Numbered from the stretch's first letter, positions 7,158-34,643 are shown. The stretch: 34,643 nt of DNA from Piedraia hortae CBS 480.64 (GCA_010093745.1 MU006049.1:1-34643), one strand, 5' to 3'. The notes: generated from the sequence alone by a model not told the origin. Numbers and translations: made by a program.

Positions 7158-8486
7158 CTACCCACCCCCGAACCTCTGCACCACACCCTCATAAATCTCC
7201 CACTTTTCAACCCTAACACCCTCAAACCCCTCCCTCACATCCAGTATTCTCACCCCCCCGACTTCCTGAATAACCCCCTTCAACCTCCCAACCGCCTCCT
7301 GATCATCCCTCACAACCAACACAACAGCATCATACCCCCCTGCACCAGGCACGACCCCGCCCAAAACCCCCTCCACCGTAGAACACTTATCCAACAACGT
7401 TGTCTGTCCAGGCGGCTCTATTGGCACCCCACTCCTCCTTCCCATGTCCCTTACACACCCTCTCACCTCTCCAAAACAGCAGCGGAGCAGGTCCTCATCC
7501 CCAATTCTCAACGCGGCAACAAGCCGATCATTCCAGCGCTGCAGATTATTCCAGAGTTCGTCGGCAGCGGGGTCATTCTCTCTCCATTGTAAGACTTGTT
7601 TGACCATCCCGGGGGTAGAGCTCCCGGTGGAGATATCGCACATGACGATTCTTAAACCATGAGGGAGAGTTAATGGATGAATGGCACCGTCCCAGGGGCG
7701 TTCGGCGAGGGACTTGAGGGTAGCGGGGAAGGCAGCGGGGCATATACCCGCTGGGGGCGGGGGTGATGAATTTTCGGGAGCCAGCCCCGCTGGGGGTGTT
7801 GAGGTATCGGGAGCTTGCACCCCCGCTGGTGATGTTAAATTTTCAGAACCCCGCACTCCCGCTAGGGAGGAGAGAATGTTAGGTGAAAAGCGGCGGTAGA
7901 TCCCACTTCCGTAGACGGCCGCGGCAACGTCAAAGCCTGAACCGATCTTCCCCTGTGCGGCACTGTGCGCTGCTTGGGCGAGGTTGTGGGTTAACTGTTT
8001 CCCTGAGGGGGAAGTGATGGTGAAGGTTGATGGGGGGAGGTGGTGTGTTAGGAGGGCCGCAGTGAGGGATGTTACCAACGCCGCGGAGGAGCCGAGGCCG
8101 GTTTTAGGGGTTGATTCTAGAGGGGTGAAATAGCTTTGGAAAGGGTCCCTGGCGGGATTCGGAGAGGAAAAGTACGCGTTATCGGATAAGATGGTGATTT
8201 TGACTGGTGGGATGGGTTGGGCTACTGTGGAGAGGTAGGATAGTGTGTAGTATAGAGTTGATTCAAGAAAGGGGTTTGAGGGGGTGATGCTGCTTGGGTG
8301 GGTGTATGTCCATTTTGCGTGGGGGAATTGTGGGGATGTGATGATTGTGTTGGTGGTGTCCAGGGAGGGTTGGATGAGGATATGGATCCGTGCGTCGAGG
8401 GAGAGGACAAGGCCGGTGTGGGATCTAGAGAGGACGAGGTAGCCGCCTGTTAGGAGGACTTTGCCTGGTGCGGAGACGGCGGTCAT
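7158..8486 (-). CDS. ERG8: Phosphomevalonate kinase (442 aa)
   Basis: SAPGKVLLTGGYLVL, the GHMP ATP-binding motif KTGLGSSAAL, AQGKIGSGFDVAAAVYG and VPGAGGYDAV. Confidence 0.96.
   Translation of the reverse strand: MTAVSAPGKVLLTGGYLVLSRSHTGLVLSLDARIHILIQPSLDTTNTIITSPQFPHAKWTYTHPSSITPSNPFLESTLYYTLSYLSTVAQPIPPVKITILSDNAYFSSPNPARDPFQSYFTPLESTPKTGLGSSAALVTSLTAALLTHHLPPSTFTITSPSGKQLTHNLAQAAHSAAQGKIGSGFDVAAAVYGSGIYRRFSPNILSSLAGVRGSENLTSPAGVQAPDTSTPPAGLAPENSSPPPPAGICPAAFPATLKSLAERPWDGAIHPLTLPHGLRIVMCDISTGSSTPGMVKQVLQWRENDPAADELWNNLQRWNDRLVAALRIGDEDLLRCCFGEVRGCVRDMGRRSGVPIEPPGQTTLLDKCSTVEGVLGGVVPGAGGYDAVVLVVRDDQEAVGRLKGVIQEVGGVRILDVREGFEGVRVEKWEIYEGVVQRFGGG
7747..7866 (-). repeat. Imperfect in-frame tandem repeat (36/36/39 bp) within ERG8
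   Basis: CCCGCT recurs at 7747, 7786, 7822 and 7858. It encodes AGVRGSENLTSP / AGVQAPDTSTPP / AGLAPENSSPPPP / AG. Confidence 0.75.
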
Positions 8487-8502
8487 ATTGTGGTTGTGGG
8501 AT

Positions 8503-8617
8503 TGCCTGAGGCATTGACAGCTGTGTGGTGTGCCTGAGGCATGAAGCTAGAGTTGCCTGAGGCAGCAGATGAAGAGCCCGAGGCAGCGGGCCTGAGGCAT
8601 ACGAAATGCCTGACGTA
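8503..8617. promoter_or_regulatory. Cluster of TGCCTGAGGCA palindromic sites in the ERG8/PPR bidirectional promoter
   Basis: Exact copies at 8503, 8531 and 8554. Variants are AGCCCGAGGCA (8575), GGCCTGAGGCA (8589) and TGCCTGACGTA (8607). Confidence 0.7.
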
Positions 8618-20393: not shown

Positions 20394-23290
20394 ATGGCAC
20401 GCAAGGCGCGACAAACGATTAGTTATGGTAAATTGGCCCGGGGAAATGCGGCGGCTGCGTGCTGACCTGGTGACGCAATTTAGTGCTACCTCTGGCCAAC
20501 TCGACGGGCGCGCACCGGCTGGGCGTGAACGGGCTTGCGATTGATTGCGATAACTCGGTGTTGTACTCGGGCGGCCGCGACGGTGTTATCTGCGCCTGGG
20601 ACCTTCAGCTCAACCTGCACCAAGGCTACGATGGCGCCTTGGATCCGCCGCAGCCAACTGTCATCAGGCAACATGTCCAGGCACATTCCCATTGGATCAA
20701 TGATATCGCTCTGGTGCAAAGCAATCAGGCCTTGGTGTCGGCCAGCTCTGATATTGCCGTCAAGATCTGGCGGCCGGCCGCGCAGGACCGAATCCCGCCA
20801 CAGACTGTCGGCCTCCACAATGATTACGTCAAGACTCTTGCCGCTCCCTCAAGCTCATCAGACTGGATAGCCAGTGGCGGGCTGGACCGCAAGATTTGCG
20901 TCTGGGATTTGAATGGCAGGGGTCAGAAGCTGACGATTGATGTTGATGATGAGGTTTGCTCTCAGAGTCAAAAGGAAAAGGGCAGTGTCTATGCTCTGGC
21001 TGCGAGAGATCATATTCTTGCAAGCGGTGGACCGGAAAGCACGTTGAGAGTCTGGGATGCGCGGACCGGCAAGCGTATAACGAAGCTGGTCGGCCATACA
21101 GACACCATTCGAGACATTCTGATCAGCGAGAACGGGCTTATAGTCCTCACCGCAAGCAGCGACTGCTCTGTCAAGATCTGGGACATGGTGGCCGGACGAT
21201 GCATGTACACGCTGACCATGCACGATGCCAGTGTCTGGAGTCTTTACTCAGACCACCCGCAATTGTCCGTCTTCTATTCAGCTGACAGAAATGGCCTCAT
21301 TGCAAAGACCGATACCAGAGCCGTGGCCCATCTCGACGAGGGAATTTCAGTTGCCGTTGCCTGCGAGCACCAAGGGGTGCAGAAGCTTGTGGCAGCTGGA
21401 GAGTACATATGGACCGCCACTAGTAAATCAAGCATCAATCGATGGCGAGACGTAGAGACTGAAAATGCCGAAATTGTAGTCCCAGACAACTGCCCGCGAG
21501 CGTCACAGAGTCCGTCCGGTCAGCGAAGACGGATGCTGCCTCTTAAACACATGCTGAAACTGAGCACCAATGGTCTCTTTCCCGCATCGCAAATTGTCCA
21601 AGGGGATCGACGCACCTCTATTATCGAAAACCCACGAGACGAGCAAGGCATGGAGATGGTCCCAGTGCAGCCAGTCAGAGATAAACCCGACTACACAATC
21701 GAAGGCCTAAACGGTCTGACCAAACACATAATGATGAGCGATCGACGACGAGTCCTCACCCTAAACACAGCCGGCGAGGTCATGATGTGGGATATCCTCA
21801 ACTGCCGCCCAATCCAATCCTACGGCAAGCGAGATATCGAAGAAGTGCACGTCGAGGTAGTAACCACAGACATCGTCACCAACTGGTGTTCGGTAGACAC
21901 CCGAACCGGGACCCTCACCGTCGCCCTAGACGAACGAACCTGTTTCGACGCAGAAGTCTACGCTGACGAACTCGGCTTAGAAAACGTCGATGAAGACGAG
22001 CGAATCAATCTGGGCAAGTGGATGTTACGCTCTCTCTTTGCAAAATTCATCGCGGAAGAAGAACGTCGAGATGAAGTCCTACGGGAACAACTCCTCACCG
22101 CAACGCGGAAACAGCAGGACCATACTCTCCCGCAGATCATCATGCCCGAAACTAATGGAGAGTACGTCACGCCAGTGACACCGGGCATAAATCTCGCTAC
22201 ACCCGGTCAACAAATTCCGACCCCAACGGGTCAAGACGACCCAGCATATTACACGCCCCAAACGTCCCGCGCATCAGCTGAGCTAGGTGACTATTTCTCC
22301 CCCTTCCGCACCCCAACACCAGCCGTAAAAACCCCCGTCCCTCTTGAAAAATCACCCACAACCCCCGGTGCAGTCGAAACAGACAAAGACCCCCCAAAAG
22401 AGAACCTCTTCTCGAAGAAATTCCGCATGAACATGTCTTTTAGCATGAAGAAGCTCAGTCGGACGCAGACAACCTCATCGTCTGTTGCCCTCGAACCCCC
22501 TACCGAACCAATCACTGAACCCCCCATCATGGACACATCCTCCCGCTCCAGCAACGGAAGCGACTCCCCTTTTCCCGACCGCCTCTCCTCACTCCTCAAA
22601 TCCCTCCGCTCAACCTACGAAGAATCCCTCCACTCCCAACTCCAATCCCAAGCCGCTTATTCAAACGGCTTGCCGGGTCCGTCCCCCGTCCCGCTAAACC
22701 TCCCCACGGAATTCAAATCCCCGGCCCCCCTCCTCTGCGCAGAAATCCCCGAGGGGACGACGGTCCTGATACAAGAACACCGCCCGGACGCCGGGTCAGT
22801 GGCTGATGTTTTTGAAGGCGCGGTCGGGAGGTTAGATTCCCTCTGTGGGGAGGTTGAACGCGCTGCGCCGAGGTGGTTGGGGGACCTCCTCCTGAGGGAT
22901 GCTGTGCCGATCAAGGAAACGGTAAAAGTGGCGTTCGTGGTTGAACCCTGTGAGGGAAGTGGTCTGCCGAGGTTGGAGGGGGAGAGGCTGAGTGCGCATA
23001 GGATGGTTAGGGCTAGGAGGGTGGTTAGGTATCTGGCGGAGAGGGTATTACCCCCAAGGGAGAGGGTGGGGGATGTACTGGAACTTTGGTGTAAAGGACA
23101 GAGGGTGGAGCCGAAGATGACGCTCGCGAGTATAAGGGCGCATGTTTGGAGGGACGGGGGGGATGTCGTTTTTGGGTATAGGAGGATTGGGGAGGAGGGG
23201 GAGGGGGGGAACAATGGGGAGGGGGATCAGAAGGGGGGTGACAAGAGAGATGACAAGAGAGACGAGCAAATGAGCAGGGAAATTGAATAG
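20394..23290 (+). CDS. WD40 deubiquitinase cofactor WDR48/UAF1 (Duf1/Bun107-like); intron 20428-20483; ~946 aa
   Basis: Exon 1 MARKARQTISY spliced (GTAAAT...GCTGAC...TAG) to VLPLANSTGAHRLGVNGL. Multiple WD repeats (LYSGGRDG, HSHWINDI, ASGGLDRKICVWD, GHTDTIRDI), NWCSVDTRTG, RINLGKW and C-terminal MTLASIRAHVWR. Confidence 0.92.
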
Positions 23291-25309: not shown

Positions 25310-25324
25310 AAAAAAAAAAAAAAA
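25310..25324 (+). repeat. A15 tract upstream of the CPSase start, in the TRM2/CPSase divergent intergenic region
   Basis: Directly visible; preceded by GCGCG. Confidence 0.85.
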
Positions 25325-25370
25325 GTCGATTTCCTCCTCCTCCCACAACTGATGCCATTGGCGATTGAAA

Positions 25371-28300
25371 ATGGAGGCTAGACAGGAGCAACAGCGGACC
25401 GGAATGGCCTTGGCTCTTGCAGACGGCCGACGCCTCCAAGGGTTCTCCTTTGGCGCCGCCCGCAGCGTCTCCGGCGAACTCGTCTTCCAGACGGGCATGG
25501 TGGGTTACCCAGAATCCATCACTGATCCTTCGTATCGCGGTCAGATCCTGGTGCTCACCTACCCGCTCATTGGTAACTACGGCGTTCCGTCTCGTGAGAA
25601 GAAAGATGCCCTGCTGGGAGACCTGCCGGCCGACTACGAGTCTCGCGAGATCCACATTGCCGGGCTTGTCGTGGCGACGTACGCAGGCGAGGAGTATTCA
25701 CATCACCTAGCTGATTCGTCGCTCGGGAAGTGGCTGCAGGAGCAGAATGTTCCCGCCCTCGAAGGCGTAGACACGCGCATGCTGACCAAGCTCATCCGTG
25801 ACAAGGGAAGCATGCCGGGCCAGCTCCTGCTCCAGGTGGGAACCGAGACGGCCAAGGCCAACGGTGTAGCAAACGGTGTTCTAAATGGCATGACCAACGG
25901 CCACGCAAAGATAAAAGAGGTTGCAGTCTATGAAGAAATTCCTTGGAGCGATCCCAACACCTGCAATCTGGTGAAAGAGGGTAAGCGTTCTTCTCGTAGT
26001 AGATCAGAACTATATCTGATCGTATATCTTAGTTTCGATTACCAATGCCAAGACTTATTTCCCATCCGTGTCCATTGCGTTGAAGCATCCGTCTGGTCGT
26101 CCTGTGCGTGTTGTTGCCGTCGACGTTGGGCTGAAATATAACCAGCTGCGGTGTCTCGTCAATCGGGGCGTCGAGGTCAAGGTGGTGCCTTGGGATTGTG
26201 ACTTTGAAAACGGCGAGGAGTACGATGGGCTGTTCATCTCCAATGGTCCTGGCAATCCAGCCATCCTCGAAGACACCGTCAGGAATATTCAACAAGCAAT
26301 TGACAAGGCCAGCACGCCCATCTTCGGTATCTGTCTAGGCCACCAGCTTCTCGCTCGTGCGGCCGGTGCAAAGACTCTGAAGATGAAGTTTGGCAATCGT
26401 GGCCAGAACATCCCCTGCACCAGTCGCTTGTCTGGTCGCTGCTACATTACCTCGCAGAACCACGGATATGCTGTCGATGCCAGCACGCTGCCTGAAGACT
26501 GGCACGAGCTTTTTGTCAACGCAAACGACAACAGCAACGAGGGCATCTACCACTCCAAGCGTCCCTACTTTAGCGTGCAGTTTCATCCTGAGAGTGCTCC
26601 GGGTCCTCGTGATACCGAGTACCTGTTTGATGTTTTCATCCAGTCGATGCTTGACTGCATCCAGGATCCAAGTCGTCTGCAACAGCCAGTCACCTTTACC
26701 GACGGCGATGTTGCTGCTGCTGCTGCTGCTGCTGCTGCGGCAAAGCATCCCAGGTTGAACCCCAAAAAGGTGCTCATCCTTGGCAGTGGTGGCCTCAGCA
26801 TCGGTCAGGCTGGCGAATTTGACTACTCTGGCAGTCAAGCTATCAAGGCCTTGAAAGAAGAAGGCATCTACACGATCCTGATCAACCCCAACATTGCCAC
26901 TAATCAGACTTCCAAGGGTCTGGCTGATAAGGTCTACTATCGCGCCGTCACCGCCAACGATGTCCGTCAAGTCATCAAGCTGGAACGTCCAGATGCCATT
27001 TACGTCACGTTTGGCGGGCAGACGGCGCTGCAGGTAGGCATTGAGCTCAAGGATGAGTTTGAGTCTCTTGGCGTCAAGGTACTGGGCACGCCCATCGACA
27101 CTATCATCACAACGGAAGACAGGAAGCGGTTCGCCCACAGCATGGAAGCCATCGGAGCTCCGTGTGCCTTGTCCAAGTCAGCCCACTCGGTCGACGAAGC
27201 CCTTGCTGCTGTAGAAGGTATTGGCTACCCAGTCATTGTCCGCGCTGGATATGCTCTGGGAGGTCAAGGCAGTGGCTTTGCCGAGAACGAGAAGCAGCTC
27301 CGCAACCTGTGTCAGAAGGCATTTGCCGCCAGTCCTCAGGTGCTCATCGAACGCAGCTTGAAAGGCTGGAAGGAGATTGAGTACGAAGTCGTCCGCGATG
27401 CCCATGACAATTGCATCACCGTCTGCAACATGGAAAACTTTGATCCTCTTGGCATCCACACCGGAGACTCTGTAGTTGTGGCGCCTTCGCAAACGCTCTC
27501 TGATGAAGACTACCAGATGCTCCGCACCACGGCTGTCAAGGCAATTAGACATCTAGGAGTCATTGGCGAGTGTAACATCCAATACGCTCTTAACCCGGAC
27601 AGCAAGGAATTCTTCATCATTGAGGTAAATGCCCGTCTGTCTCGGTCTTCAGCTCTGGCGTCCAAAGCCACTGGGTACCCTCTAGCCTTTATCGCCGCCA
27701 AGCTCGGCCTCAACATTGCCCTCAATGAGATCAAGAATTCCATCACCAAGGAGACGTGTGCCTGCTTCGAGCCTTCGCTGGACTACGTCGTCGTCAAGAT
27801 TCCCCGCTGGGACTTGAAGAAGTTCACTCGAGTGTCCAATCTGCTTGGATCAGCCATGATGAGCGTCGGCGAGGTAATGGCCATTGGCAGGACGTTTGAA
27901 GAGGCCATCCAAAAGGCCATCCGCGGCGTTGACCCGAGCAATCTCGGCTTCAACGAGACTGAAGCACTCATGTCCATTGACATTGACACGGAACTCCAGA
28001 CGCCGTCTGACCAGCGCATGTTTGCCCTTGCCAATGCCATGCACAATGGCTATTCAGTCGAGAAGATCTTCCAGATGACAAAGATTGACCGCTGGTTCCT
28101 TTACCGTCTTAAACGGCTGAGTGATTTTGGCAAGCAGATGAAGGAGTTGATGAATAGCCATACTGTGGATACCGTCCCGCATCAGATCTTTTCGGAGGCG
28201 AAGAAGCTCGGCTTCTCAGACGGTCAGCTGGCTCTTTTCTGGGGCAGTGATGAGCTCGGTGTCCGCCATGCGAGGCTGGAGTTGGGCATCATGCCTGTTG

Positions 28301-29958
28301 TGAAGCAGATTGATACCGTGGCGGCTGAGTTCCCGGCGTATACCAACTATCTGTATATGACGTACAATGGGACGGAGCATGACGTTGAGTTTAACGACAA
28401 GGGACTCATGGTGCTTGGTTCTGGGACGTATCGTATCGGCTCGTCGGTCGAGTTTGATTGGTGCTCTGTTCAGGCGGTGCGCACGCTGCGCGGGAACGGG
28501 TACAAGACGGTCATGGTTAATGTCAACCCAGAGACGTGCAGTACAGACGCCGAAGAATCCGACCGTCTCTACTTTGAAAACATAACTCTAGAGTCTGTCC
28601 TGGATATCTACCAACTGGAGCGGTCTAATGGGGTCATCCTCTCCGTGGGCGGTCAACTTCCAAACAACATCTCCCTCCCCCTATACAAAGAGAACGTCAA
28701 CGTCCTCGGCACGTCTCCCGAGATGATCGACTCTGCAGAGAACCGCTACAAATTCTCCCGCATGCTCGACAACGTCGACGTCGACCAACCGGAATGGAAA
28801 GAAGCCACCAGCGAGCGCGAGGCAAAGGACTTTGCCGCCAAGGTCAGGTACCCCGTCCTGGTCCGTCCCTCATACGTCCTCTCCGGCGCAGCCATGAACA
28901 CAGCCTACTCCGAACCCGACCTGCAGACCTACCTAAGCCAAGCCAAGCAAGTCTCCAAAGACTACCCGGTAGTCGTAACAAAGTATATCGAAAACGCGAA
29001 GGAGATCGAAATGGACGCCGTAGCCCGCAACGGCGAAGTCATCGCGCACGTCATCTGCGAACACGTCGAAAACGCCGGCGTCCACTCCGGCGACGCAACC
29101 CTCATCCTACCTCCCCAAGACCTCGACAGCGAAACCGTCTCCAAAATCGAGCTCGCAACCCGCAAAATCGCCAACGCCCTTGACGTAACCGGACCATTCA
29201 ACATCCAATTCATCGCCAAAGACCAAGCCATAAAGGTCATCGAATGCAATGTGCGAGCCTCGCGTTCCTTCCCCTTCGTCTCCAAAGTCACGAGCCTGGA
29301 TCTAATCGAACTCGCAACAAAAGTCATGGCCGGCATCCCCGTCCCAGCCACGATCACACCAACCTACCGCCCCGGCATCATCGCCGTAAAGGTCCCGCAA
29401 TTCTCCTTCTCGCGCCTCTCGGGCGCGGACCCCGTCATGGGCGTCGAAATGGCCAGTACCGGCGAAGTAGCCTGCTTCGGCCATACCCAATACGAAGCCT
29501 ATCTCAAAGGGTTCATCGCTACCGGCCTCAAACTCCCCAAAAAGAACATCCTCCTGTCCATCGGATCGTATAACCACAAAATCGAAATGTTGCCGTCTGT
29601 ACAGAAGCTCGAGAAGTTGGGGTATAAGCTTTTTGCTACTGCTGGTACTGCGGATTTTCTGGAAGCGCATGGGGTGAAGGTGCAGTTTATGGAGGCGATG
29701 CAGGAACAGGGTCAGAGGGAGGAGTATTCTCTCACCGATGCGTTGAAGAATAATTTGATTGATCTCTATGTGAATTTGCCGTCGAGGAATCAGTTCCGCA
29801 GGCCGGCAAGTTACTTGTCCAAGGGATATAGGACGAGGAGGATGGCGGTGGATTTGCAGGTGCCGTTGGTGACGGATGTGAAGGTCGCGAGGATACTGGT
29901 GGAGGCGCTTTCGAGGGGGGTTGGGTTGGAGGTTGGGGAGGTAGATGCGTTGGGTTGA
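25371..29958 (+). CDS. URA2: Pyrimidine-specific glutamine amidotransferase-carbamoyl phosphate synthetase (GATase-CPSase part of URA2/pyr-3); intron 25981-26032; ~1511 aa
   Basis: [15 protein letters not shown], GATase FGICLGHQ and [71 protein letters not shown] and an MGS-like C-terminal domain. Intron GTAAGC...CTGAT...TAG restores the frame. Fused GATase+CPSase distinguishes it from arginine-specific CPA1/CPA2. Confidence 0.95.
26713..26736 (+). repeat. (GCT)8 coding microsatellite; poly-Ala10 in the GATase-CPSase linker
   Basis: Directly visible; encodes DGDV-A10-KHPR. Confidence 0.95.
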
Positions 29959-29982
29959 GACTATGGGGAGGGATTTGTTGGG

Positions 29983-30052
29983 NNNNNNNNNNNNNNNNNN
30001 NNNNNNNNNNNNNNNNNNNNNNNNNNNNNNNNNNNNNNNNNNNNNNNNNNNN
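29983..30052. other. Assembly gap (70 N)
   Basis: Run of n characters; the true length is unknown. Confidence 1.
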
Positions 30053-30314
30053 CGCAAATCTTTCCCGTGCATAGCTGTTCCTTTGTTGCATGGCGTTGTG
30101 TACATTGGCGTGTATAGAGAGGGATATTTAATTTGTAGTTTCGTCTATGTGTGTTATGTTCGCTATGTACGAAGACATGCACCATCCGAATTATTCAATC
30201 TATCCAAAATAAGTGCAACGATTCGAGTCTGTTGTGGCGTCGGGCTTGTGGGGCAACCAGCACACACCCAACACCTCGTCTTGGCACCCACCCACCCACC
30301 CACCAACAACAACA

Positions 30315-31312
30315 ATGCCCTCTCCCTGGAAAGGCAAATCCATCGTCTCCGTCTCGGACTTTAGTCCCTACGACCTTCGCAATCTCTGGACCACAACGCA
30401 AGAGATGCAATCCCGCGTCGAGCGGGACGAATGTCTCGACGTTCTAAAGAACAAAATCCTCTGTCTAATTTTCTTCGAACCGTCTACCAGGACCTCAAGC
30501 TCGTTTGATACTGCGATGAAAAGGCTAGGGGGACAATGTGTTATGATCAATGAGTCGCATTCTTCGACACGTAAGGGGGAATCATTGGAAGATACGATTC
30601 GGACATTGGATCAGTATGGTGATGCGATTATTTTGCGACATCCGGGTGATGAGAGTGCGGAGGTTGCGGCTACTGTGGCAGAACACCCGGTGATTAATGC
30701 TGGTTCCGGGTCGCGGGAACATCCTACCCAGGCGTTGCTGGATTGGTATACGATTGGGGTTGAGTTGGGGGGTTGGAATGGGTTGATGGTTACGTTTGTG
30801 GGGGATCTAAAGTATGGAAGGACGGTGCACTCGCTGTGTAAGTTGTTGAGGCATTATAATGTCAGGATTCAGCTGGTTGCGCCAAAGGGGTTGGCGCTTC
30901 CGGAGGAGCTACGGGCGGAGTTGAGGGAAAGGGGACAGTTGGTTGGGGAGGAGGAGGCTTTGACGAGGGAGATTGTGAAGAGTACGGATGTGCTTTATTG
31001 CACACGTGTGCAAAAGGAGCGATTCGAAGACCCTCACCTCTACGAAAAGGTCAAGGATAGCATCACAATCACGACAAAGACCCTTGCAGATGCCAAGGAG
31101 AAGATGATTGTGATGCATCCCCTACCCCGGAACAAGGAAATCGAACCAGACGTGGACGCTGACCCACGTGCTGCCTACTTTCGACAAGTAAGTTTCCCCC
31201 CCCCCTCCCCCCCTGCCTGCAGAACCAGCCAGTGCAATGCTAATCTCGGCTGCAGATGAAATATGGCATGTACGTCCGCATGGCGTTGCTGGCCATGGTG
31301 ATGCAAGACTAA
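30315..31312 (+). CDS. Aspartate carbamoyltransferase, apparently stand-alone (ATCase domain of URA2/pyr-3); intron 31188-31255; 309 aa
   Basis: [54 protein letters not shown]. Intron GTAAGT...GCTAAT...CAG joins AAYFRQ to [16 protein letters not shown]. The ATG has a strong ACAACAATG context, and there is an in-frame TAA upstream at 30210. Confidence 0.93.
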
Positions 31313-31569
31313 AAACGGGCGTGATAAGGGTGGTGGTATCATGGCGAGTGACAATGAACATGGCAATCATCGCTCGTGTGAGGGTGCTGCCTTGCTCGGA
31401 GGATTCTCGAGCCACGATGAATCCGTTGCAACGGTCGGCAGCTGATCGGATCTACCCGCGGAATCACGTTGGACGTGGTGGGGCGATTGTTTTTAGCGCC
31501 GGAAACCACGACAGTCACCACCGCGCGATTGTTACCCGGCAAAGCGTCTGCCCAAATGTCCCAATCCTC

Positions 31570-34500
31570 ATGTCTCCAGCTTCCAATGTGCCAGGTCGCT
31601 CCGCGAGCGGCCGCGAGGCATCTCGCCCCCGTGTTCAAGAGGTCCCGTCGTCCGCTGAGAAGGCCGGCGGGACCACATCGCTAACCCAACGTATCCATAA
31701 GGCCGTGTTGCCGCAGCTGTCGGAGAGGGACTCCATCTTTGCCACTCATTATGCCGACGACAGCGACGATTCTCGCGGTGTCACCCCGCCGAGCGCTGAG
31801 GGCTCCACCAAGCCTCTTCTTCATCCCGCCGTTCCCCAACCCCGGAAACCCGCAAGGCCTGCAGCCCAATCCCAGTGGCAGCATCGCTGGTCCATGAGCG
31901 AGGCCATGCCTGTGCAGACCTCGCTGCTGGGGGTCGATGGCGAGGCCGGGGAGGGTAGTACCACCCCCCGCGCCGACGATCACCAAAGAGAAACGTACCG
32001 GTCCTGGAGAGAGGGCAATGCAAAACCGGAGGGAATGACAATTGCAGAGTCTCAGCGGGAGCAGGCTCCCGAGGCCAACGTTGAAAGACTGATTGATGCA
32101 CGGATGCCGTCTGAGACCCGTACCCCCAACCTGCGTGGTCGCAAGGCCAGCCACTATCTCGGCGTTTTTCGTGAGAGAGAGGATGAAGTCAAGGGAAACT
32201 GGAAGAAAGACGTCCCGCTCGCTGTCGAAGAGGCTGTTGAAGAGGAGCCAGAAGACACTGTGACCCCCAAAGAACGACACTTGCCGCATGAGCTACTGGA
32301 GGAAATTCGTAAATCAACAAGGCGAAGACAGACTGTACAAGCAAAAGAGGCTGGCAAAGCAGAAGCCCCAGAATACATCAAGTCGGCTCAATATATCCCA
32401 CACAAGGGTCGTCGTGTGGATGACTCTCCCGATGACAAGCAAGTCTCGTTGAACCAGCGAGGAGAGGCGCCGGAGAAAAAGGATACTTCTGACCATGTAG
32501 ACATTGCTATACGACAAGGAGACACCAGCGATTGTCTGCAGGGAGATCTTTCGGAGCCGTCGTCTCTTCCAAAATTTGAGCCGCTGCCGTCACCTGCTCT
32601 TGTCGACAAGAATGTCAAATCTGACTCAGACTACGAATCAGACTACACGGGCTACGAATCACTGCCTGAGCCAGACGAGGCCAGAGCAACCGGCGGTCTC
32701 CGCCACCAACTGGACGTTGCCCGCGGCGTGCCTTCGGACTCGCGGCGGCCACCGGTGGGCGTTGTGGAGCTGAAGCCGTACAGACACCAGGTGGGAGGCC
32801 ACACGGCGCTCTACCGCTTTTCTAGGCGTGCCGTCTGCAAGCAGCTTAACAGCAAGGAGAACATGTTCTACGAAACGGTGGAGAAATATCATCCGGAGCT
32901 GTTGGGCTTCATGCCTCGTTATATTGGAGTGCTGAATGTCACTTATCGCAAAGACAAGCCAAAGGCTGTGCCTGAGGTCAAGGTGAGCAGTGCACCAGAT
33001 AAGTCTCCTGCAGATACGCCCAGAGTCTTCAGTCACTCGGCCCAGGCGTCCAATTCCATTCCTCATGTCGTTTTCGACAACAACAGGCACTTGATCCCGT
33101 TTGATCTCTTCCCTGCGCCCGCTAGACCGGCCACGTCGGGCGCCATGCAGCCCCGGACGGCCTCGTCTATGAGTGATGACGACTTTCTCACCCGCCGTAG
33201 GTCTTCGCTGCGAGAGCACTCCAGCTGGGGGTTCACGTCTGTCAATTCAAAGCTCCGTGACCATGTGCTTCGGGAAGTCTTTTCGCCGCCGCCTATCCAT
33301 CGTCATGATCGTAGGGAGCGCGCTCAGCACAGCAGGTTATTGCAGACGTTGCGTCCGCATGCTAACAGCAATCAGGCTGCTCCTCTTTCGCCAGCGGACC
33401 TGCTCAGCGGCCACGAGCGGTCTTCTTCGGATGGCCTCCACCAATCCGGTCTTAGCAGGAGCGCCGAGGCCCATCTGTCTGACCAACTTCCTCATGCCAT
33501 CCGCAGACGCCACTCTGGAGGCGGACTCCGAAAACCCGCCAACGCTGAAGGCGAACGGCAAGATCTCGAGTATCACGAAAACGACACCTTTGTCCCTGAA
33601 GCCACCAAAACTCCGACAACAGACATGCGCAAAAGCGTGCTCACCAGCCAACTAGCAGCCGCCAAGGCCGCCGAGCCTGACCTAGACACCGAGCCACGCA
33701 ACCCCGAAACCTCTCTCGTCCAACACGACGAACGGGTGGAACACTTTCTCCTCCTCGAAGATCTCACGGCTGGGATGCAAAAACCCTGCGTGCTAGACCT
33801 CAAAATGGGCACCCGCCAATACGGCGTCGACGCCGATTCCAAGAAACAAAAATCTCAAAAACGGAAATGCAAAATGACCACCTCCCTCGAGCTTGGCGTC
33901 CGCGTCTGTGGCATGCAAGTCTACAACGTCAAAGCGCAGCGGTACCATTTCGAAGATAAATACGTCGGCCGCGACATCAAAGCCGGCAAGGAATTCCGCG
34001 AGGCACTCCAACGTTTCTTCTTTGACGGAATCGGATACTCCCAGGCCGTGCAGCATATCCCCTCCCTTCTCGAGAAACTCACCGACCTGGATAAAATCAT
34101 TCGAAAACTACCGAGTTACCGCCTCTACGCGAGTAGTCTCCTGTTGATATACGACCGCGGCGACGCAGACGAGAAAGGGCGCTCTCGTCCCGTTAGCAGG
34201 TCTTTGGAGGATGGGAAAGGGGAAGAGAGTCATCATCACACGACGCAGTATAAAGGGATCAAGCTGAAAATCGTGGATTTTGCGAATTGTGTTACCTCGG
34301 AGAGGATCGAGGAGGTTCTGCTAAAGCCGTGTCCGCCCGCACATCCGTATGATGTTGATAGAGGGTATGTTCGTGGGTTGAGGACACTCAGGTTGTATTT
34401 TCGTAGGATTTGGGAGGAGCTGAATGATGTGAAACGGCATGTTGAGAGGGGGGAGGGGGAGGGTATGGGTGTTCCCTCTGCGAGGGTCGTGGGGGGAAAT

Positions 34501-34575
34501 GGATCCGCGAGTCTCAGTGCGAGGGGGTGGAGCGAGGTTGGAGTGGGGGATGAGGGAGGGGAGATGAGTACGTAG
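31570..34575 (+). CDS. KCS1: Inositol hexakisphosphate kinase (~1001 aa; start uncertain)
   Basis: [11 protein letters not shown]...[23 protein letters not shown], the IPK motif [22 protein letters not shown] and IVDFA. Confidence 0.92.
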
Positions 34576-34643
34576 ATGACATGGTTTACCCGTGGGGATT
34601 GAGGGGGGTGTATGAGTAGATGATAACTTCTTTAGAAGGGCGG

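Follow-up and report, generated by a model that had tools for sequence, protein, structure and literature searches.

A stop codon between the carbamoyl-phosphate synthase and aspartate transcarbamoylase frames suggests two separate enzymes at the URA2 locus of Piedraia hortae, in a fungal lineage already lacking the dihydroorotase-like domain

The window analysed here is a stretch of 34,643 nucleotides (nt) from Piedraia hortae CBS 480.64 (GCA_010093745.1, MU006049.1:1-34643), and homology identifies it as the pyrABCN/URA2 locus of this black fungus, which infects hair. According to one account, fungi encode a CAD-like protein in which an inactive dihydroorotase-like (DHO-like) domain is kept for dimerising aspartate transcarbamoylase (ATCase) trimers into a hexameric particle (PMC8442968). 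In the window, the frame for glutamine amidotransferase (GATase) and carbamoyl-phosphate synthase (CPSase) ends in a stop codon, and ATCase follows downstream in a frame of its own. We conclude that the protein is probably split (we put the probability at about 0.6), with a GATase-CPSase of ~1510 amino acids (aa) and a free ATCase of 309 aa made from adjacent genes; both enzymes keep intact domains. The original prediction had further proposed that an in-situ deletion of the DHO-like domain produced the split. Comparison of homologous sequences indicates instead that the loss of this domain is real, predates Piedraia, and occurred in a protein that stayed fused.

The public gene model reads the same bases in another way. 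A database protein of 1853 aa (P0005), named carbamoyl-phosphate synthase of Piedraia hortae CBS 480.64 and 100% identical to our ATCase query, is fused: when its sequence is placed on the window, CPSase and ATCase are joined via an intron at 29954-30213. The model exits the CPSase frame one base past ...GEVDAL at the donor G/GTTGAG (29954), skips the TGA, an assembly gap and an AT-rich spacer, re-enters at 30214 behind the acceptor ...AAAATAAG, and from there reads VQRFESVVASGLWGNQHTPNTSSWHPPTHPPTTT, then MPSPWKGK. Fission and an intron across the gap are two readings of the same 356 nt. We compared contigs, rather than raw reads, of two sequencing runs of this one organism, from different samples and studies, over 28900-31700. 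The first (X1) consists of DNA contigs and is possibly the source of the assembly itself, and the second (X2) is guessed to be RNA; contigs lose rare variants, and only dominant forms are visible in them. Domains were called with Pfam, and a maximum-likelihood tree of 27 full-length proteins was built with IQ-TREE. The features of the locus are listed below (+, forward strand).

25371-25980, +: GATase-CPSase exon 1, from ATG 25371 (Pfam CPSase_sm_chain, 9.6e-46; agrees with the N-terminus of P0005)
25981-26032, +: GATase-CPSase intron 1, 52 nt, GTAAGC...CTGAT...TAG (placed by homology; junction KE/VSITNAK as in P0005)
26033-29958, +: GATase-CPSase exon 2, to TGA 29956-29958 just past a complete MGS-like allosteric domain (translation, Pfam, X1 and X2 contigs)
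29913-29982, +: G-rich CPSase frame end with the 24 nt that follow its stop (G fraction 0.58 in 29913-29972)
29954-30213, +: intron of the public model, GTTGAG...AAG, spanning the gap (P0005 placed on the window); unsupported here
29983-30052, no strand: assembly gap of 70 N, the only N run in the window, where contigs of both runs break
30053-30213, +: AT-rich spacer of 161 bases, from its composition and stops a candidate 3' untranslated or promoter region
30214-30314, +: C/CA-rich stretch with a (CACC)n run (C fraction 0.50-0.55), a 5' leader under fission or a linker exon in the public model
30315-31187, +: ATCase exon 1, 291 codons from ATG 30315 (Pfam; X2 RNA contig over 30382-31187)
31188-31255, +: ATCase intron, 68 nt, GTAAGT...CTAAT...CAG (X2 contig joint from 31187 to 31256, GT..AG)
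31256-31312, +: ATCase exon 2, stop TAA 31310-31312 (translation, P0005, X2 contig)

The first gene has the GATase and CPSase content of a fungal CAD-like protein, with the small-chain domain, two ATP-grasp units, the oligomerisation domain and the MGS-like domain (Pfam CPSase_L_D2, 2.4e-114; CPSase_L_D1, 2.9e-84; GATase, 1.4e-54; CPSase_L_D3, for oligomerisation, 1.8e-24; MGS, 2.7e-21). Its long open frame, 1312 codons from 26020 to 29958, ends as originally predicted at TGA 29956-29958, right after the MGS-like domain and 24 nt before the N run. The MGS match covers profile positions 1-94 of 94, and Pfam finds no domain between it and the stop. A sequencing error at a contig end had been named as one way in which this stop could be false. 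Contigs of X1 and X2 both span 28900-29982 with zero differing, missing or inserted letters, so the TGA is real; with two runs and two samples in agreement, the suspicion of an error is not borne out.

The second gene encodes a complete ATCase with both carbamoyltransferase halves (OTCace_N, 1.4e-45; OTCace, 2.8e-26, or 7.6e-32 with the last exon). The STRT, HPTQ and HPLPR stretches, which are catalytic in ATCase, are conserved, and MHPLPRN is identical in relatives. Its ATG at 30315 lies in the context ...caacaacaacaATGcc, with an A at -3, and sits where it had been predicted, at the ATCase domain boundary behind a CA-rich leader. From the CPSase stop to this ATG there are 356 nt (29959-30314), 70 of them N, again as predicted, and the stretch after the gap does look non-coding: besides the TAA at 30210 already pointed out in the ATCase frame, the spacer holds two further stops in that frame, at 30072 and 30129. 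All of the prediction's statements about the sequence itself hold, save one coordinate detail.

Splicing past the stop would reconcile these frames with a single protein, and the donors at 29941 (the GTAGAT that the original prediction named as a possible escape) and 29954 (the annotated one) are the only frame-compatible ones. An X2 contig of 1509 nt is colinear through both donors and the TGA, from which we conclude that the dominant RNA carries the in-frame stop. A second X2 contig, of 4193 nt, skips exactly 31188-31255 (GT..AG), showing that X2 holds spliced RNA. In no contig of X1 or X2 is 29953 or 29940 joined to 30214 or 30261, and splicing from 29941 was not seen in either run. As to whether CPSase and ATCase share one polypeptide, the in-frame TGA of two runs and the unspliced X2 contig stand on one side, and the fused public model, with the fact that contigs miss minor forms, on the other.

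The annotated intron is also unlike the others available for comparison. As reference we took nine introns, two of this locus (52 and 68 nt) and seven distinct counterparts of the last ATCase intron from metagenome loci; every one (9/9) opens with GT[AGC]AG[TC], contains CTRAY as its branch motif, closes with YAG and measures 52-73 nt. The annotated intron measures at least 260 nt, at least four times the length of the others, its donor GTTGAG lacks the A at +4 and the G at +5, and its acceptor is AAG. CTRAY is absent from its 161 visible 3' bases (30053-30213), where one YTNAY lies 85 nt from the acceptor. The final 15 nt of the CPSase frame contain GT in each of the three phases, so that chance, by our estimate from the sequence, is not an unlikely source of a frame-compatible GT..AG pair.

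Relatives show neither the intron nor the stop. In loci L002-L011, a single open frame runs uninterrupted from RRMAVD, a motif at the CPSase end, through a linker into ATCase, and at least seven of these loci are genomic DNA: L004, L006, L008 and L009 keep the ATCase intron, and L003, L010 and L011 lie on contigs of 160, 23 and 84 kb. The proposed comparison with sister taxa therefore yields an uninterrupted linker without an intron, but the DHO-like domain that was expected there is absent from the relatives too. Their linker of ~30 aa carries Q.F.E after VDY and, in 21/21 aligned named relatives, [ST]L.[ED][LM]L before SPFKGK; the motif [ST]L.[ED][LM]L..SPFKGK recurs in the DHO-containing loci L012-L021 and in stand-alone fungal ATCase paralogues. 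Piedraia has a TGA and the spacer in place of the continuous linker, and lacks [ST]L.[ED][LM]L, where HPPTHPPTTT, encoded by the (CACC)n run, stands instead. If the sequence in front of the Met has ceased to be translated, loss of this motif is what one would expect. That Met directly precedes SPWKGK, and 3/21 relatives have a Met at the same position. The reading originally predicted, a pair of neighbouring genes instead of a single fused one, is the better supported on four grounds (a real stop, colinear RNA, an atypical intron and intron-free relatives), with a separate ATCase transcript start that is putative.

Where the prediction needs revision is in the origin of the split. We searched with ATCase for longer homologues, limited to proteins of 511-2000 aa, and used the 120 closest matches. 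Those with names are all Dothideomycetes (Oleoguttula, Acrodontium, Meristemomyces, Friedmanniomyces, Baudoinia, Elasticomyces, Neophaeotheca, Aureobasidium, Cryomyces, Polychaeton, Zymoseptoria, Peltaster, Elsinoe, Delphinella, Hortaea, Pseudocercospora, Myriangium, Teratosphaeria and Cladosporium), and full-length Dothideomycete forms have 1795-1907 aa. From the RRMAVD-type motif to the ATCase motif EPSTRT, the spacing is 117-127 aa in 119/120 of these closest homologues, the remaining one lacking a motif; the commonest value is 118 aa, and the maximum, 127, is that of the Piedraia model P0005 (relatives, 117-125). For comparison we took the 120 best matches to the region between the domains of P0131, a Pseudogymnoascus protein of 2239 aa, over which they are 60-70% identical; here the spacing is 503-537 aa in 119/120 proteins of Leotiomycetes, Sordariomycetes and Lecanoromycetes. 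Measured between Pfam borders, MGS and ATCase are 463 aa apart in P0131, against 67 aa for P0005 and 58 aa for P0068 of Zymoseptoria.

The inactive DHO-like domain that CAD-like proteins carry in fungi, ~400 aa in length, is accordingly absent from Piedraia, and to this extent the prediction stands, but the absence is specific neither to this locus nor to this genome, being shared by the 119 scorable of 120 close homologues, Teratosphaeriaceae-like taxa among them. All 119 are fused without the domain, and therefore an in-situ deletion of ~1 kb did not create the split; that proposal fails, with Piedraia nested among fused relatives that were already DHO-less. In the tree, the six DHO-containing proteins form one clade (100/100), and Piedraia falls inside the DHO-less Dothideomycete clade, grouped at 99/97 with Teratosphaeria, Oleoguttula, Meristemomyces, Baudoinia, Friedmanniomyces and Elasticomyces. 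Its branch is ~5 times the median (0.69 vs 0.13), and because of this length its exact sister is unsure. The full texts we searched, which exclude most subscription journals, hold no description of DHO-less fungal CAD-like proteins or of a split URA2.

Divergence is uneven along the Piedraia proteins. ATCase identity is 70.8% between Piedraia and Oleoguttula vs 89.3% between Oleoguttula and Baudoinia; for the N-terminal half of the CPSase synthetase the values are 84.5% vs 90.1%. By domain, the excess divergence of Piedraia is greatest in ATCase, similar in GATase and the CPSase C-terminal half, and least in the CPSase N-terminal half. On balance, with the odds only a little better than even, we favour the view that Piedraia secondarily un-fused CPSase and ATCase, fused elsewhere across fungi and animals, within an already DHO-less lineage (among the sampled Dothideomycetes).

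The best explanation can be set out in outline. The lineage already possessed a shortened fused protein of GATase-CPSase, a linker of ~30 aa and ATCase, and in Piedraia the place of the linker is taken by a stop and ~356 nt that look non-coding, comprising a G-rich tract (the gap), the AT-rich spacer and the CA-rich leader. Two products would most likely result, a GATase-CPSase ending in ...GEVDALG and an ATCase starting from the Met at the domain boundary, the latter presumably made from its own transcript or by another route beginning at ATG 30315. Carbamoyl phosphate would then pass between separate proteins, by diffusion or within a non-covalent complex, and any control of ATCase by uridine triphosphate (UTP) via the fused regulatory domain of CPSase, which binds UTP, would disappear or depend on such a complex.

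Several observations weigh against the split, and most of them speak for its strongest rival, in which the protein is still fused as in the public model, with a long, newly gained linker intron (29954-30213 plus the true gap length) and a single CPSase-ATCase of 1853 aa. P0005 is annotated in this way, through a canonical GT (29954) and AG (30212-30213) that keep the frame, and the spacing it yields between the two motifs is near that of relatives. QRFES, just past the proposed acceptor, weakly resembles Q[TDE]F[AS]E, which relatives have after VDY; if it were homologous to QTFAE, the inserted segment would coincide with the annotated intron, as it should after an intron gain. Intron gain through introner-like elements has been reported in this fungal group. 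The ATCase frame is open over the 34 codons before ATG 30315, weak evidence in a stretch so rich in C and poor in stops. In addition, X2 counts as RNA by a guess backed by one spliced joint alone, and it is perhaps from the same strain as the assembly, in which case it is no independent genome; ~356 nt is short for a terminator plus a promoter; and a minor spliced fused isoform, as rare variants are lost from contigs, is compatible with what they show. The RNA contigs also leave 30053-30381 uncovered, and with it the 67 nt that open the ATCase frame, and no ATCase transcript start is seen. This hole is technical, because the conserved codons in 30321-30404 must be transcribed.

What speaks against the fused model is that the X2 contig is unspliced at the donor and the stop even though the 68-nt ATCase intron is spliced in the same run, with no joint across the region in X1 or X2. 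The rest of the evidence points the same way: donor, acceptor, branch motif and length depart from all nine checked introns, the splice pair could have arisen by chance, the seven DNA loci from relatives lack an intron at this place, and the conserved motif before ATCase is gone. We also considered an introner-like or mobile element in 30053-30314 and rejected it on a weak negative, there being no second copy within the window, the only sequence searched, and an unremarkable fold (z -0.31). Taken together, a protein still fused through this intron seems to us unlikely, at less than half the credence we give to the split.

A compromise is less probable still. Most CPSase RNA might end, or stay unspliced, past the TGA, with a minor spliced or read-through RNA giving a fused isoform or a bicistronic ATCase. 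That contigs reveal dominant forms only is in keeping with this, as is the RNA contig unbroken from ATCase (30382) to beyond 31700, from which it follows that neighbouring transcripts of this compact locus merge or overlap; but no joint or bridging contig was seen, and the scheme makes extra assumptions that no observation requires. We regard it as improbable.

As to the gap itself, the X2 RNA contig extends 38 loose letters past 29982, purine/G-rich, and X1 DNA contigs halt at both edges, 5 letters past 29982 and 9 loose letters before 30053; at least the left part of the gap is a G-rich low-complexity tract, a type of sequence at which short-read assemblies break. AllPaths-LG derives gap sizes from read pairs. 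Illumina assemblies of the source paper, perhaps including the present one, were made with this program (PMC7082219). An assembly artefact, with faulty contig ends or at least ~1 kb of coding sequence including a DHO-like domain hidden in the gap, is very improbable: a gap does exist and X1 breaks at its edges, but the stop precedes it in two runs, no sampled relative has a DHO-like domain (119/120 are spaced at 117-127 aa), the letters known from inside it are a G-rich low-complexity run, and the sequence behind it carries stops in the ATCase frame.

Further observations concern the contigs and the surrounding sequence. The end of an RNA contig at 30382, which has no loose letters, was considered as a transcript 5' end and rejected, given that residues encoded in 30321-30404 are conserved and that the CPSase RNA contig likewise starts mid-gene, at ~28512. 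For X2 the word share of 0.82 equals the value expected from the placed contigs alone, with a sampling error too large for use. The (CACC)n run lies at 30266-30304, just upstream of the ATCase ATG, and X1 DNA contigs break beside it, one ending at 30285 and another beginning at 30266, a hint that the repeat is heterogeneous in length. Shortly before the GATase-CPSase start there is a run of ~16 A at 25310-25325 and an upstream ATG at 25352.

The G-rich end of the CPSase frame had been described as typical of gene 3' ends in the window. This applies to the CPSase frame (last 90 nt, G 0.51 and C 0.09) and to several others, but two frames have G of 0.27 and 0.23. Other long frames end, over the last 90 nt of the coding strand, with G/C of 0.54/0.10, 0.50/0.03 and 0.48/0.08; G-rich, C-poor ends (G 0.48-0.54, C 0.03-0.10) are found for example in the frames 7158-8546(-), 20474-23290(+), 26020-29958(+) and 31192-34575(+). 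They may reflect a genome-wide composition of 3' ends. The Piedraia hortae genome is reported to have 16.95 Mb and 7572 genes, the smallest in its class (PMC7082219).

Downstream of ATCase lies a gene for an inositol-polyphosphate kinase (Pfam IPK, 1.3e-58), at ~257 nt if it starts at ATG 31570, a guessed start in a frame that has earlier Met codons. The 4193-nt RNA contig is continuous over 30382-34643, from ATCase across this space and through the kinase gene, so neighbouring transcripts overlap or read through.

Over ATCase, Piedraia is 64-72% identical to its closest Dothideomycete relatives, the ATCase ends of Dothideomycete pyrABCN proteins matching exon 1 at 70-72%, and P0131 is 58% identical to it. 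Many metagenome ATCases (loci L022-L080; P0503, from a metagenome-assembled genome named Chloroflexi) reach 53-59%, and DHO-containing fungal homologues, at 56-61%, are about as close as these. Among proteins of 160-510 aa there is no 100%-identical stand-alone ATCase record, which is uninformative either way. The last ATCase intron is missing in L002, L003, L005, L007 and L015, where FRQ runs directly into M[KR]YG; in L003 it is truly absent, because the contig is 160 kb long, and short contigs among the intron-less loci may be transcripts.

In bacteria, plants and some protists CPSase and ATCase are as a rule separate, and gene fission is known; the surprise offered by this locus is moderate and the general phenomenon familiar. 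It does yield two misfits with the CAD scaffold picture, an apparently class-wide DHO-less fusion and one member probably without the covalent link. Of these the class-wide DHO-less CPSase-ATCase fusion is the more robust finding, more so than the split, and it is awkward for the current scaffold model. If the split is real, there would be a natural series from the full CAD-like protein through a DHO-less fusion to two free enzymes, a series that would test the need for covalent linkage and for the DHO scaffold in channelling and UTP control; if confirmed, its members would be natural constructs for studying complex assembly, carbamoyl-phosphate channelling and the route of UTP to ATCase. The public gene model also deserves a flag, as it bridges an assembly gap with an implausible intron.

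Set beside known systems, the Piedraia locus has the domain order, content and pathway role of the fungal CAD-like protein (Ura2 of S. cerevisiae, pyrABCN of Aspergillus, and the ~2240-aa P0131 of Pseudogymnoascus and P0391 of Podospora), from which it differs in lacking the DHO-like domain and in having a stop codon between CPSase and ATCase. Its closest relatives are the DHO-less fused forms of Dothideomycetes, such as those of Zymoseptoria (P0068, 1870 aa), Baudoinia (P0017, 1874 aa), Oleoguttula (P0007, 1881 aa) and Aureobasidium (P0032, 1832 aa), which share the absence of the DHO-like domain and differ by an uninterrupted, conserved linker of ~30 aa. Stand-alone fungal ATCase paralogues in Imshaugia aleurites (P0429, 322 aa) and Metarhizium rileyi (P0452, 320 aa), on contigs of 399 kb and 1.98 Mb, have both ATCase Pfam halves as in Piedraia and are 56-57% identical to its ATCase; unlike Piedraia they keep the N-terminal TL.ELL.KS, and presumably these species carry them in addition to a full pyrABCN. 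In kinetoplastids and apicomplexans, genes encode a GATase-CPSase polypeptide and a separate homotrimeric ATCase. The ATCase of T. cruzi is described as a non-allosteric homotrimer (PMC13195161). If the fission is real, the protein layout in Piedraia would be the same as in these protists, a fused GATase-CPSase with a free ATCase of the catalytic chain only, but of independent origin: a secondary break of the ancestral opisthokont fusion, with the genes lying head-to-tail, 356 nt apart.

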